A stretch of DNA of 4,342 bases, from IMG/VR virus record IMGVR_UViG_2609460218_000006; one strand, written 5' to 3'. The notes below the pieces were generated by a model. That model saw only the letters and a list, made by a program, of their open reading frames with translations. It had not been told where the DNA came from and searched no databases. Positions 1-4,342 of the stretch are shown in pieces (the stretch's first letter is position 1; each line of letters begins with the position of its first letter). Source of the stretch: a virus. Lineage: Duplodnaviria; Heunggongvirae; Uroviricota; Caudoviricetes. A program made the translations under genes and the position numbers.

Positions 1-124
1 GCAGTTGCCATGTTTTACGGCAGTGAGAGCAGAGATAGCGCTGATGTCCGGCAGTGCTTTTGCCGTTACGCACCACCCCGTCAGTAGCTGAACAGGAGGG
101 ACAGCTGATAGAAACAGAAGCCAC
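1..124 (-). CDS. insA: IS1 InsA (transposition regulator), N-terminal 41 codons; 3' part outside window
   Basis: Minus-strand translation from the GTG at 124..122 gives [41 protein letters not shown], matching IS1 InsA as I recall it. The frame runs off the left edge, so it is absent from the ORF track. Confidence 0.85.
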
Positions 125-156
125 TGGAGCACCTCAAAAACACCATCATACACTAA

Positions 157-179
157 ATCAGTAAGTTGGCAGCATCACC
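157..179 (-). repeat. IS1 left terminal inverted repeat (IRL, about 23 bp)
   Basis: nt 157-179 (atcagtaagttggcagcatcacc) is the reverse complement of GGTGATGCTGCCAACTTACTGAT, the IS1 terminus as I recall it. Lambda-H-like coding sequence begins immediately after, at nt 180. Confidence 0.85.
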
Positions 180-1455
180 GAAAATCCTGCAGGCAGATTA
201 CAACACGCTGATGGCGGCGGCGAAAAAGGATTATGAAGCGATGCTGAAAAAGCCGAAACAGTCCGGCGTGAAAGTGTCTGCGGGCGATCGTCAGGAAGAC
301 AGTGCTCATGCTGCCCTGCTGACGCTTCAGGCTGAACTCCGGACGCTGGAGAAGCATGCCGGAGCAAATGAGAAAATCAGCCAGCAGCGCCGGGATTTGT
401 GGAAGGCGGAGAGTCAGTTCGCGGTACTGGAGGAGGCGGCGCAACGTCGCCAGCTGTCCGCACAGGAGAAATCCCTGCTGGCGCATAAAGATGAGACGCT
501 GGAGTACAAACGCCAGCTGGCTGCACTTGGCGACAAGGTTACGTATCAGGAGCGCCTGAACGCGCTGGCGCAGCAGGCGGATAAGTTCGCACAGCAACAA
601 CGGGCAAAACGGGCAGCCATTGAGGCGAAAAACCGGGGGCTTACTGACCGGCAGGCAGCGCGGGAAGCCACAGAACAGCGCCTGAAGGAACAGTATGGCG
701 ATAATTCGCTGGCGCTGAATAACGTCATGTCAGAGCAGAAAAAGACCTGGGCGGCTGAAGACCAGCTTCGCGGGAGCTGGATGGCAGGCCTCAGGTCCGG
801 CTGGAGTGAGTGGGAAGAGAGCGCCACGGACAGTATGTCGCAGGTTAAAAGTGCAGCCACGCAGACCTTTGATGGTATTGCGCAGAATATGGCGGCGATG
901 CTGACCGGCAGTGAGCAGAACTGGCGCAGCTTCACCCGTTCCGTGCTGTCCATGATGACAGAAATTCTGCTTAAGCAGGCAATGGTGGGGATTGTCGGGA
1001 GTATCGGTAGCGCCATTGGCGGGGCTGTTGGTGGCGGCGCATCCGCATCAGGCGGTACAGCCATTCAGGCCGCTGCGGCGAAATTCCATTTTGCAACCGG
1101 AGGATTTACGGGAACCGGCGGCAAATATGAGCCAGCGGGGATTGTTCACCGTGGTGAATTTGTCTTCACGAAGGAGGCAACCAGCCGAATTGGTGTCGGC
1201 AACCTGTACCGCCTGATGCGGGGCTATGCGGAAGGTGGTTATGTGGGCGGTGCCGGAAGTCCGGCGCAGATGCGGCGGGCTGAAGGCATTAATTTTAATC
1301 AGAACAATCACGTGGTGATTCAGAACGACGGTACGAATGGTCTGCCAGGTCCACAGATGATGAAGGCAGTGTATGACATGGCCCGCAAAGGTGCCCGTGA
1401 TGAAATTCAGGCACAGATGCGCGATGGTGGTCTGTTCTCCGGAGGTGGACGATGA
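180..1455 (+). pseudogene. H: Tail tape-measure protein gpH, 3' fragment (about 424 C-terminal codons) truncated at its 5' side by IS1
   Basis: Translation from nt 181 (KILQADYNTLMAAAKKDYEA ... KAVYDMARKGARDEIQAQMRDGGLFSGGGR, stop TGA 1453-1455) matches the C-terminal half of lambda gpH (853 aa) as I recall it. In-frame stops lie upstream at 85-87, 103-105 and 154-156 inside IS1. The track's TTG start at 166 is inside the IS1 inverted repeat and is not a genuine start. Confidence 0.9.
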
Positions 1456-1781
1456 AGACCTTCCGCTGGAAAGTGAAACCCGGTATGGATGTGGCTTCGG
1501 CCCCTTCCGTCAGGAAAGTGCGCTTTGGTGATGGCTATTCCCAGCGAGCGCCTGCCGGGCTGAATGCCGACCTGAAAACGTACAGCGTGACGCTTTCTGT
1601 TCCCCGTTGGGAGGCCACGGCGCTGGAGTCGTTTCTGGCTGAGCACGGGGGCTGGAAAGCCTTTCTGTGGACGCCGCCTTATGAGTGGCGGCAGATAAAG
1701 GTGACCTGCGCAAAATGGTCGTCGCGGGTCAGTATGCTGCGTGTTGAGTTCAGCGCAGAGTTTGAACAGGTGGTGAACTGA
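1452..1781 (+). CDS. M: Minor tail protein gpM (tail-tip assembly), 109 aa
   Basis: Translation MKTFRWKVKPGMDVAS...RVEFSAEFEQVVN is near-identical to lambda gpM as recalled. GGAGG at 1441-1445 sits 6 nt before the ATG, and the ATG overlaps the H stop (ATGA, 1452-1455). Confidence 0.95.
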   Translation: MKTFRWKVKPGMDVASAPSVRKVRFGDGYSQRAPAGLNADLKTYSVTLSVPRWEATALESFLAEHGGWKAFLWTPPYEWRQIKVTCAKWSSRVSMLRVEFSAEFEQVVN

Positions 1782-2479
1782 TGCAGGATATCCGGCAGGA
1801 AACACTGAATGAATGCACCCGTGCGGAGCAGTCGGCCAGCGTGGTGCTCTGGGAAATCGACCTGACAGAGGTCGGTGGAGAACGTTATTTTTTCTGTAAT
1901 GAGCAGAACGAAAAAGGTGAGCCGGTCACCTGGCAGGGGCGACAGTATCAGCCGTATCCCATTCAGGGGAGTGGTTTTGAACTGAATGGCAAAGGCACCA
2001 GTACGCGCCCCACACTGACGGTTTCTAACCTGTACGGTATGGTCACCGGGATGGCGGAAGATCTGCAGAGTCTGGTCGGTGGAACGGTGGTCCGGCGTAA
2101 GGTTTACGCCCGTTTTCTGGATGCGGTGAACTTCGTCAACGGAAACAGTGGCGCCGATCCGGAGCAGGAGGTGATCAGCCGCTGGCGCATTGAGCAGTGC
2201 AGCGAACTGAGCGCGGTGAGTGCCTCTTTTGTACTGTCCACGCCGACGGAAACGGATGGCGCTGTTTTTCCGGGACGTATCATGCTGGCCAACACCTGCA
2301 TCTGGACCTATCGCGGTGACGAGTGCGGTTATAGCGGTCCGGCTGTCGCGGATGAATATGACCAGCCAACGTCCGATATCACGAAGGATAAATGCAGCAA
2401 ATGCCTGAGCGGTTGTAAGTTCCGCAATAACGTCGGCAACTTTGGCGGCTTCCTTTCCATTAACAAACTTTCGCAGTAA
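1781..2479 (+). CDS. L: Minor tail protein gpL (tail-tip protein with C-terminal cysteine cluster), 232 aa
   Basis: Translation MQDIRQETLNECTRAEQSASVVLWEIDLTEVGGERYFFCNEQ...FLSINKLSQ is near-identical to lambda gpL as recalled. Start overlaps the M stop (TGATG, 1779-1783). C-terminal cysteines lie in CIWTYRGDECGYSG and KCSKCLSGCKF. Confidence 0.95.
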   Translation: MQDIRQETLNECTRAEQSASVVLWEIDLTEVGGERYFFCNEQNEKGEPVTWQGRQYQPYPIQGSGFELNGKGTSTRPTLTVSNLYGMVTGMAEDLQSLVGGTVVRRKVYARFLDAVNFVNGNSGADPEQEVISRWRIEQCSELSAVSASFVLSTPTETDGAVFPGRIMLANTCIWTYRGDECGYSGPAVADEYDQPTSDITKDKCSKCLSGCKFRNNVGNFGGFLSINKLSQ

Positions 2480-2484
2480 ATCCC

Positions 2485-3228
2485 ATGACACAGACAGAAT
2501 CAGCGATTCTGGCGCACGCCCGGCGATGTGCGCCAGCGGAGTCGTGCGGCTTCGTGGTAAGCACGCCGGAGGGGGAAAGATATTTCCCCTGCGTGAATAT
2601 CTCCGGTGAGCCGGAGGCGTATTTCCGTATGTCGCCGGAAGACTGGCTGCAGGCAGAAATGCAGGGTGAGATTGTGGCGCTGGTCCACAGCCACCCCGGT
2701 GGTCTGCCCTGGCTGAGTGAGGCCGACCGGCGGCTGCAGGTGCAGAGTGATTTGCCGTGGTGGCTGGTCTGCCGGGGGACGATTCATAAGTTACGCTGTG
2801 TGCCGCATCTCACCGGGCGGCGCTTTGAGCACGGTGTGACGGACTGTTACACACTGTTCCGGGATGCTTATCATCTGGCGGGGATTGAGATGCCGGACTT
2901 TCATCGTGAGGATGACTGGTGGCGTAACGGCCAGAATCTCTATCTGGATAATCTGGAGGCGACGGGGCTGTATCAGGTGCCGTTGTCAGCGGCACAGCCG
3001 GGCGATGTGCTGCTGTGCTGTTTTGGTTCATCGGTGCCGAACCACGCCGCAATTTACTGCGGCGACGGCGAGCTGCTGCACCATATTCCTGAACAACTGA
3101 GCAAACGAGAGAGGTACACCGACAAATGGCAGCGACGCACACACTCCCTCTGGCGTCACCGGGCATGGCGCGCATCTGCCTTTACGGGGATTTACAACGA
3201 TTTGGTCGCCGCATCGACCTTCGTGTGA
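2485..3228 (+). CDS. K: Tail-tip assembly protein gpK with N-terminal JAB/MPN (JAMM) domain and C-terminal NlpC/P60-like domain; 247 aa as drawn
   Basis: Continuous ORF starting 5 nt after the L stop. HSH at nt 2686-2694 begins a complete JAMM metal-binding motif (HSHPGGLPWLSEAD = H-x-H-x7-S-x2-D), with an upstream E-x-CG element (APAESCGF). TDCYTLF and NHAAIY...HH in the C-terminal half fit an NlpC/P60-type Cys/His arrangement. The C-terminal 199 aa match lambda K as recalled. Start is uncertain: an internal ATG at 2629 with GGAGG at 2613-2617 corresponds to the classical 199-aa start. Confidence 0.85.
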   Translation: MTQTESAILAHARRCAPAESCGFVVSTPEGERYFPCVNISGEPEAYFRMSPEDWLQAEMQGEIVALVHSHPGGLPWLSEADRRLQVQSDLPWWLVCRGTIHKLRCVPHLTGRRFEHGVTDCYTLFRDAYHLAGIEMPDFHREDDWWRNGQNLYLDNLEATGLYQVPLSAAQPGDVLLCCFGSSVPNHAAIYCGDGELLHHIPEQLSKRERYTDKWQRRTHSLWRHRAWRASAFTGIYNDLVAASTFV

Positions 3229-3796
3229 AAACGGGGGCTGAAGCCATCCAGGCACTGGCCACACAGCTCCCGGCGTTTCGTCAGAAACTGAGCGACGGCT
3301 GGTATCAGGTACGGATTGCCGGGCGGGACGTCAGCACGTCCGGGTTAACGGCGCAGTTACATGAGACTCTGCCTGATGGCGCTGTGATTCATATTGTTCC
3401 CAGAGTCGCCGGGGCCAAGTCAGGTGGCGTATTCCAGATTGTCCTGGGGCTGCCGCCATTGCCGGATCATTCTTTACCGCCGGAGCCACCCTTGCAGCAT
3501 GGGGGGCAGCCATTGGGGCCGGTGGTATGACCGGCATCCTGTTTTCTCTCGGTGCCAGTATGGTGCTCGGTGGTGTGGCGCAGATGCTGGCACCGAAAGC
3601 CAGAACTCCCCGTACACAGACAACGGATAACGGCAAACAGAACACCTATTTCTCCTCACTGGATAACATGGTTGCCCAGGGCAATGTTCTGCCGGTTCTG
3701 TACGGTGAAATGCGCGTGGGGTCACGCGTGGTTTCTCAGGAGATCAGCACGGCAGACGAAGGGGACGGTGGTCAGGTTGTGGTGATTGGTCGCTGA
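3126..3796 (+). pseudogene. I: Tail assembly protein gpI, disrupted by a 1-nt deletion (-1 frameshift) in a G-run at about 3446-3449
   Basis: Frame 0 from ATG 3126 gives MAATHTLPLASPGMARICLYGDL...GGVFQIVLG, matching lambda gpI residues 1-108, then diverges (LPPLPDHS...) to a stop at 3528-3530. From nt 3449 the other frame reads AAAIAGSFFTAGATLAAWGAAIGAGGMTGILFSLGASMVLGG...QVVVIGR (stop 3794-3796), matching the rest of lambda gpI. One extra G at 3446-3449 would restore a 223-codon ORF. A sequencing error is an equally possible cause. Confidence 0.8.
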
Positions 3797-3814
3797 TGCA
3801 AAATGTTTTATGTG

Positions 3815-3842
3815 AAACCGCCTCCGGGCGGTTTTGTCGTTT
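3815..3842 (+). terminator. Terminator-like GC-rich hairpin plus T-tract in the I-J intergenic region (function unproven)
   Basis: aaaccgcc (3815-3822) pairs with ggcggttt (3827-3834) around a 4-nt loop tccg (3823-3826), followed by T-rich ttgtcgttt. Seen in sequence; no energy calculation was possible. Confidence 0.3.
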
Positions 3843-3844
3843 AT

Positions 3845-3848
3845 GGAG
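3845..3848 (+). promoter_or_regulatory. Shine-Dalgarno sequence for J
   Basis: GGAG at 3845-3848, 8 nt upstream of the J ATG at 3857. Confidence 0.6.
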
Positions 3849-3856
3849 CGTGAGGA

Positions 3857-4342
3857 ATGGGTAAAGGAAGCAGTAAGGGGCATACCCCGCGCGAAGCGAA
3901 GGACAACCTGAAGTCCACGCAGTTGCTGAGTGTGATTGATGCCATCAGTGAAGGGCCGATTGAAGGTCCGGTGGATGGATTAAAAAGCGTGCTGCTGAAC
4001 AGTACGCCGGTGCTGGACAGTGAGGGGAATACCAACATCGCCGGTGTCACGGTGGTGTTCCGGGCTGGTGAGCAGGAGCAGACTCCGCCGGAGGGATTTG
4101 AATCCTCCGGCTCCGAGACGGTGTTGGGTACGGAAGTGAAATACGACACGCCGATCACCCGCGCCATCACGTCGGCAAACATCGACCGACTGCGCTTTAC
4201 CTTTGGTGTGCAGGCACTGGTGGAAACCACCTCAAAGGGGGACCGGAATCCGTCGGAAGTTCGCCTGCTGGTTCAGATACAGCGTAATGGTGGCTGGGTG
4301 ACGGAAAAAGACATCACCATTAAGGGCAAAACCACCTCGCAG
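3857..4342 (+). CDS. J: Tail tip / host-specificity protein gpJ (central tail fibre), N-terminal 162 codons; continues beyond window
   Basis: Translation MGKGSSKGHTPREAKDNLKSTQLLSVIDAISEGPIEGPVDGLKSVLLNSTPVLDSEGNTN... matches the lambda gpJ N-terminus as recalled. The frame is open to the window end, so it is absent from the ORF track. Confidence 0.9.
   Translation, partial: MGKGSSKGHTPREAKDNLKSTQLLSVIDAISEGPIEGPVDGLKSVLLNSTPVLDSEGNTNIAGVTVVFRAGEQEQTPPEGFESSGSETVLGTEVKYDTPITRAITSANIDRLRFTFGVQALVETTSKGDRNPSEVRLLVQIQRNGGWVTEKDITIKGKTTSQ

Follow-up and report, generated by a model that had tools for sequence, protein, structure and literature searches.

The window, by which we mean the whole stretch of 4,342 nt analysed here, is the tail-tip block of a lambda-type prophage. 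It holds the following features, numbered from its first nucleotide.

1-179, minus strand: terminal 179 nt of IS1 (inverted-repeat end), inside the tape-measure gene H; relatives without IS1 align from 180 only, and in the relative L137 the IS1 transposase lies directly upstream.
181-1455, plus strand: H′, what remains of the tail tape-measure gene at its C-terminal end (424 codons; Pfam Tape_meas_lam_C), severed from the N-terminal half by IS1.
1452-1781, plus strand: gene M (minor/distal tail protein), intact; full-length Pfam Phage_min_tail, and the exact protein is common in E. coli.
1781-2479, plus strand: gene L (minor tail protein L), intact; Pfam Phage_tail_L, E = 2.8e-100.
2485-3228, plus strand: gene K (JAB + NlpC/P60 peptidase; Pfam Prok-JAB and NLPC_P60), intact, with a private F103L (A at 2793).
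3126-3796, plus strand: gene I as a whole, between K and J.
3126-3530, plus strand: upstream ORF of gene I from translation and Pfam, with 108 native codons (ending KSGGVFQIVLG), 26 out-of-frame codons (LPPLPDHSLPPEPPLQHGGQPLGPVV) and a TGA.
3446-3449, plus strand: G4 run, site of the one-base deletion in alignment with orthologues, which have G5.
3450-3796, plus strand: rest of gene I (codons 109-223 and stop; translation AAAIAGSFF...VVVIGR*), in the -1 frame relative to the start.
3527-3796, plus strand: ORF of 89 aa from the first start codon of the downstream frame, corresponding to gpI 135-223 by the ORF list and cryo-EM coverage.
3815-3842, plus strand: intergenic GC hairpin between I and J (aaaccgcc/ggcggttt), followed by T-rich sequence, read by eye from the letters.
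3857-4342, plus strand: start of gene J (central tail fibre), running off the window; assigned from how lambda, phage 21 and E. coli relatives are annotated.

The best-matching E. coli complete genomes align over positions 180-4342 only, at 99.7% identity. The site homologous to the I-J hairpin is annotated as a terminator in phage 21; the hairpin at 3815-3842 is absent from the output of a simple terminator scan, and a terminator just ahead of the essential gene J, within the late operon, would be odd.

Gene I is split by the loss of a single base. The run at 3446-3449 reads GGGG, as against GGGGG in lambda, phage 21 and nearly all orthologues, a deterministic contrast with thousands of orthologues and not a statistical pattern. 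In translation, the upstream frame runs from the ATG at 3126 to a TGA at 3528-3530 and gives a 134-aa product, and the remainder of I lies in the -1 frame through to the TGA at 3794-3796. Over about 105 nt around the G run, the absent G is the sole difference from both lambda and phage 21 in the alignment, and the full-length phage matches are all 672 nt against a 671-nt query. Inserting one G yields a 672-nt ORF of 223 codons, whose product is identical to lambda gpI at 221 of 223 residues (the exceptions being R42Q and I164T) and to that of phage 21, and likewise of the nearest relative L137, at 222 of 223. Residues 109-223 are identical to lambda gpI apart from I164T, and DNA identity over the I region is 98.8% with lambda and 99.4% with phage 21. 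The initial annotation, which had placed a frameshift in I at this G run and proposed that one added G would restore a 223-codon gene, was thus right in its coordinates, frames and ORF length.

Three parts make up the protein encoded by I: an N-terminal ubiquitin-like beta-grasp domain closed by a conserved glycine is followed by a glycine-rich linker and then by a small C-terminal domain, and the JAB peptidase of gpK has been predicted to cut after the ubiquitin-like domain (Iyer et al. 2006, PMC1779556). Only gpI 135-223 (or 134-222) is resolved by cryo-EM in the lambda virion, where it forms a trimer that acts as a plug in the tail-tip lumen and keeps hold of the gpH C-terminus (PMC10721106, PMC12617516); the gpI chain of PDB 9e7m covers 133-222. 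In the window, Pfam places Lambda_tail_I (PF06805) at residues 14-97 (E = 5.7e-29, profile positions 2-83 of 83). The break follows codon 108 (GGG) and falls within a hydrophobic Gly/Ala-rich linker, 7 residues beyond the SGG (99-101) that closes the ubiquitin-like domain. The frameshifted product, whose aberrant peptide is LPPLPDHSLPPEPP, ends in 26 wrong residues rich in proline, and it is missing both hydrophobic segments (centred near 103-121 and 130-148) as well as the C-terminal plug domain. We infer that functional gpI is not made and that I is a pseudogene.

Lambda gpI (NP_040599.1; PDB 8iyk, 8iyl, 8k35, 8xcg, 9e7m) has the same position between K and J and the same three-part architecture as the window's I, which differs from it in the G absent at codons 108/109, in the split into 134 aa and 89 aa and in a private R42Q. 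Genes of the gpI family (Pfam PF06805 at the N-terminus, then TAPI-C) lie between K (JAB + NlpC/P60) and J, as the window's I does, and encode the ubiquitin-like domain, Gly-rich linker and C-terminal domain in a single ORF of about 223 codons, which the window's I does not. The window's I is thus a member of the gpI family by descent, but a disrupted one.

Two start sites in I deserve mention. The ATG of the 89-aa ORF at 3527 corresponds to Met135 of gpI and overlaps the upstream TGA at 3528-3530 (ATGA), so that this ORF is exactly the gpI segment resolved in virions; it is called on 223 public contigs. The ATG sits in the loop of a 6-bp GC hairpin (3518-3535). As a terminator signal this hairpin was rejected, with 1 site found against 0.7 expected by chance. 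At the other end of the gene, RefSeq/PGAP and the gene calls of related contigs begin I at a GTG at 3225 that overlaps the K stop (190 aa) in place of ATG 3126 or 3165. The GTG start drops the first strands of the Lambda_tail_I domain, whose first residue in the 223-aa form is 14, and this short start is probably a widely propagated annotation error.

The tape-measure gene H is also broken. The IS1 damage to H proposed in the initial annotation is seen in the IS1 end at 1-179 and in the IS1 transposase upstream of the corresponding sequence in L137 (GCA_003057355.1, an E. coli draft contig). L137 carries a simple IS1 insertion in H with an 8-bp duplication (GAAAATCC); the insertion is at 9172-9939 of that locus, and the transposase has the Pfam IS1 domains. 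The truncated H product (404 aa, from the ATG at 241) has exact copies on 8 public contigs, of which one is the E. coli draft genome L137 and the others come from metagenomes (gut) or Logan, and all those that reach upstream of the ORF run into IS1 sequence. Its presence on 8 public contigs shows that a defective IS1::H prophage lineage is circulating and is not a one-off. A prophage with H split by IS1 could not build tails anyway.

Five of the 8 truncated-H contigs reach gene I. They are mutually identical, have five Gs and an intact I, and differ from the window at only 4 places, namely the missing G and three substitutions, given here as the window's base and then that of the relatives:

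1389, A/G, in H: synonymous.
2793, A/C, in K: F103L.
3250, A/G, in I: R42Q.

Because I is intact in five contigs with the window's IS1::H junction, the insertion of IS1 is older than the loss of the G, which, real or apparent, is private to the window. The initial annotation had named close relatives with four Gs and a functional product as the observation that would speak against disruption of I; when checked, the closest relatives proved to have five. With a frame-breaking indel relative to 99.9%-identical relatives and an IS1-split H, the window's I would, if the source DNA carries the indel, belong with the homopolymer-indel pseudogenes of prophages.

The substituted alleles are themselves rare. 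The allele at 2793 (K F103L) was found in 0 of 3,425 E. coli records and that at 3250 (I R42Q) in 0 of 3,286, and 1389A in H occurs in 6 of 884. The window's exact K protein is absent from a collection of 15 billion proteins, and we found no exact match to the 134-, 121- and 101-aa frameshifted products in the public protein sets searched, nor to the repaired Q42 forms of I or the 199-aa form of K. A Q42 25-mer had no match in IMG/VR or the JGI metagenomes, the exact IS1::H junction of the window none in IMG/VR or GTDB representative genomes, and neither plasmids nor phage records yielded a source for the window; the truncated H protein alone led to the closest sequences. The window's combination of alleles is thus in no public assembly or protein set searched. 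The window base is A at all three private substitutions. A mutator or mutagenised strain might lie behind the four private changes (two transitions, one transversion and one homopolymer indel).

We then asked how rare the four-G form is, using a 61-nt probe centred on the G run that matched 2,678 records of E. coli complete genomes. Only 4 of the 2,678 matched the four-G form exactly; the other 2,674 fell below 99% identity, with 98.4% (equal to a one-base gap, the fifth G) in every one of the matches listed. In IMG/VR, at least 120 contigs carry five Gs and none carries four, and 102 of 106 full-length I genes there are intact 672-nt ORFs. GTDB representative genomes gave 0 four-G matches, and JGI/ENA metagenome contigs gave one, with 2.3x coverage and 14 gap openings relative to the window. 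Typing of 134 G-run sites in the retrieved loci turned up no six-G allele. Given the rarity of the four-G form and the in-frame orthologues, I is normally a single ORF and its two-frame layout is not conserved.

RefSeq annotates the same site of I as frameshifted in other E. coli. The tail assembly pseudogenes marked 'frameshifted' by PGAP (for example QDW99_RS07170 in ETEC1746 and XF37_RS18530 in O157:H7 Rafaela_II) have the identical change at the same position and match the window at 100% over the 61 nt around the G run. They belong to other prophage lineages, 95-99% identical over the aligned tail block, and none has IS1 in H, unlike the window. Given this level of identity and the different lineages, the losses of the G are independent events. 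A matching frameshift product is found on at least 13 contigs.

The quality of the four-G sequences varies. Three of the four E. coli complete genomes with four Gs (Rafaela_II, ET474 and FELIX_MS516) carry frameshift flags on most or all of the tail genes next to I, and draft assemblies with four Gs (L128, L130 and L133) have 8-16 gaps over 4 kb. ETEC1746 (L004, NZ_CP122727.1) and GCA_036681845.1 (L129) are 100% identical over 8 kb and both have four Gs, with intact H, M, L, K and J beside the split I; their prophage is a candidate natural split-I prophage. In three other loci (L131, L135 and L136), a large deletion joins the Nu1/terminase region to I (about 5,890-5,915 in each locus), with its junction some 10 nt ahead of this G run, so that only the 89-aa C-terminal ORF of I is left. 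These are effector-carrying cryptic prophages with NleB/SseK, M85 peptidase and OspG-kinase genes downstream.

What breaks the frame in the window is an ordinary loss of one base from a homopolymer, real or apparent, and the prophage was already defective. On balance, and only just, we consider it probable that I carries a genuine, non-programmed one-base deletion that arose by slippage in an already dead prophage. With the tape-measure gene already cut in two by IS1 and the prophage dead, I had lost the protection of selection; a slipped-strand replication error would have taken G5 to G4 at codons 108/109, and the deletion could have become fixed without cost. On the sequence as written, ribosomes that start at the ATG at 3126 make the ubiquitin-like domain, add 26 wrong codons and stop at 3530. 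Across 4.3 kb the missing G is the sole indel that sets the window apart from its relatives, and another 17 runs of at least 5 bases, including one G6 and six G5, are all of the expected length; the window sequence is therefore not generally indel-prone. Only about 6% of random deletions would fall in a run of at least 4 bases, and the location therefore points to slippage. The private substitutions (2 nonsynonymous and 1 synonymous) fit relaxed selection. A tolerated frameshift in a lambdoid tail gene lost by chance has a parallel in stf, which is frameshifted in lambda PaPa relative to Ur-lambda; however, laboratory growth does not need stf, whereas tails cannot be assembled without I, and the tolerance in the window comes from a prophage that was already defective.

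Real mutations and miscalls both favour homopolymers, and it is quite possible, if somewhat short of probable, that the run is five Gs long and I intact in the source DNA and that one G was dropped in sequencing, base-calling or assembly. The G run of I is a demonstrated miscall hotspot, because error-ridden assemblies and the 2.3x metagenome contig share the four Gs: the same miscall is found in the frameshift-ridden Rafaela_II, ET474 and FELIX_MS516 and four Gs also in the gap-rich L128, L130 and L133. The five IS1::H-sharing contigs that reach I are all five-G and mutually identical, so that four private differences in 4.3 kb, with none among the relatives, are many for a young clade, and the window's alleles are missing from every collection searched. 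A raised error rate would also fit the three other private bases, two of which occur in 0 of more than 3,000 orthologues; however, 1389A is a natural allele (6 of 884 records), and the contig L144 shows that there is real diversity in the IS1::H clade. Error-prone long-read assemblies usually show several indels, whereas the window has one. A real frameshift would cost an already defective prophage nothing, and the same deletion is present in ETEC1746 and GCA_036681845.1, whose tail module is otherwise intact. The G run begins inside a Dcm site, CCTGG (3443-3447). This context is error-prone for nanopore base-calling, and the Dcm site may explain the frequent loss of a G here in nanopore-type assemblies.

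Recoding would leave the split gene functional, and we looked for its usual signals. A programmed -1 frameshift was rejected, as there is no conservation, no heptamer and no structure. The zero-frame sequence at the site is C CUG GGG CUG, which does not form a slippery heptamer X XXY YYZ, and only single-tRNA slippage on G GGG is possible. The folding energy of 3440-3540, -43.3 kcal/mol, hardly differs from the mean of shuffled sequences (-43.1; z = -0.05), and so the region contains no stimulatory structure. The initial annotation had read the site as pseudogenisation or homopolymer error and not as a programmed frameshift, a reading that in-frame orthologues and the missing RNA structure support. 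In lambda G-T, a conserved slippery heptamer, G GGA AAG, directs the shift, and the two-frame layout is conserved across long-tailed phages. The window resembles lambda G/G-T in being a tail-gene block of a lambdoid phage with -1 frames at a G-rich site, but its relatives are single-frame and it has neither the heptamer nor the conservation. Transcriptional slippage was also rejected, four Gs being far below the length that it needs.

It remains to be weighed whether the split I could work through -1 P-site slippage of tRNA-Gly on G-GGG, or through termination-reinitiation at ATGA (3527-3530), and we regard this as very improbable. A -1 slip on GGGG would place GCT next and give ...LGAAA..., identical to wild-type gpI, and the stop of the upstream ORF shares bases with the start codon of the 89-aa ORF, whose product corresponds to gpI 135-223, the sole part resolved in virions. 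The prediction that gpK normally cleaves off the ubiquitin-like domain (Iyer et al. 2006, PMC1779556) and the four-G allele in the otherwise intact tail module of ETEC1746 also speak for such function. However, the arrangement is not conserved, the downstream RNA is as structured as shuffled sequence (z = -0.05), no X-XXY-YYZ heptamer is present, and a two-protein version would be without the hydrophobic segment 109-134. Since one cryo-EM model of gpI already includes residue 134 as its first, ahead of Met135, translation of the native protein does not start at Met135. The ATG lies in a GC hairpin, and the Shine-Dalgarno-like sequence near it is only weak. In the window the question is moot, as H is broken by IS1. 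Because RNA structure and heptamer are absent, relatives are in frame and the model starts at residue 134, we treat the ATGA overlap and the slip that restores wild type as chance results of where the G was lost. If a split allele were alive, covalent joining of the ubiquitin-like domain and the linker 109-134 would be dispensable for lambda tail-tip assembly, which would fit the old prediction that the JAB peptidase of gpK cuts the gpI halves apart.

A phase-variable homopolymer that toggles gene I is hardly credible: G5 to G4 does recur in unrelated lineages, but about 0.15% of E. coli records (4 of 2,678) show the off form, mostly through assembly errors, six-G alleles are absent among the 134 typed sites, and a tract of 4-5 nt, five bases at most, is well below the length of contingency loci, which typically run to at least 7-8 and are marked by a long tract with both lengths common.

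Whether a decayed gene or a homopolymer miscall, the window's I should be marked in annotation as a frameshifted pseudogene. The G5 at codons 108-109 of lambda-type I suffers a recurrent one-base loss in assemblies and is usable as a quick quality check. The break parts the ubiquitin-like domain from exactly the part of gpI resolved in the virion, and otherwise intact prophages with a natural four-G allele offer a ready means of asking if gpI can do without the link between its halves.
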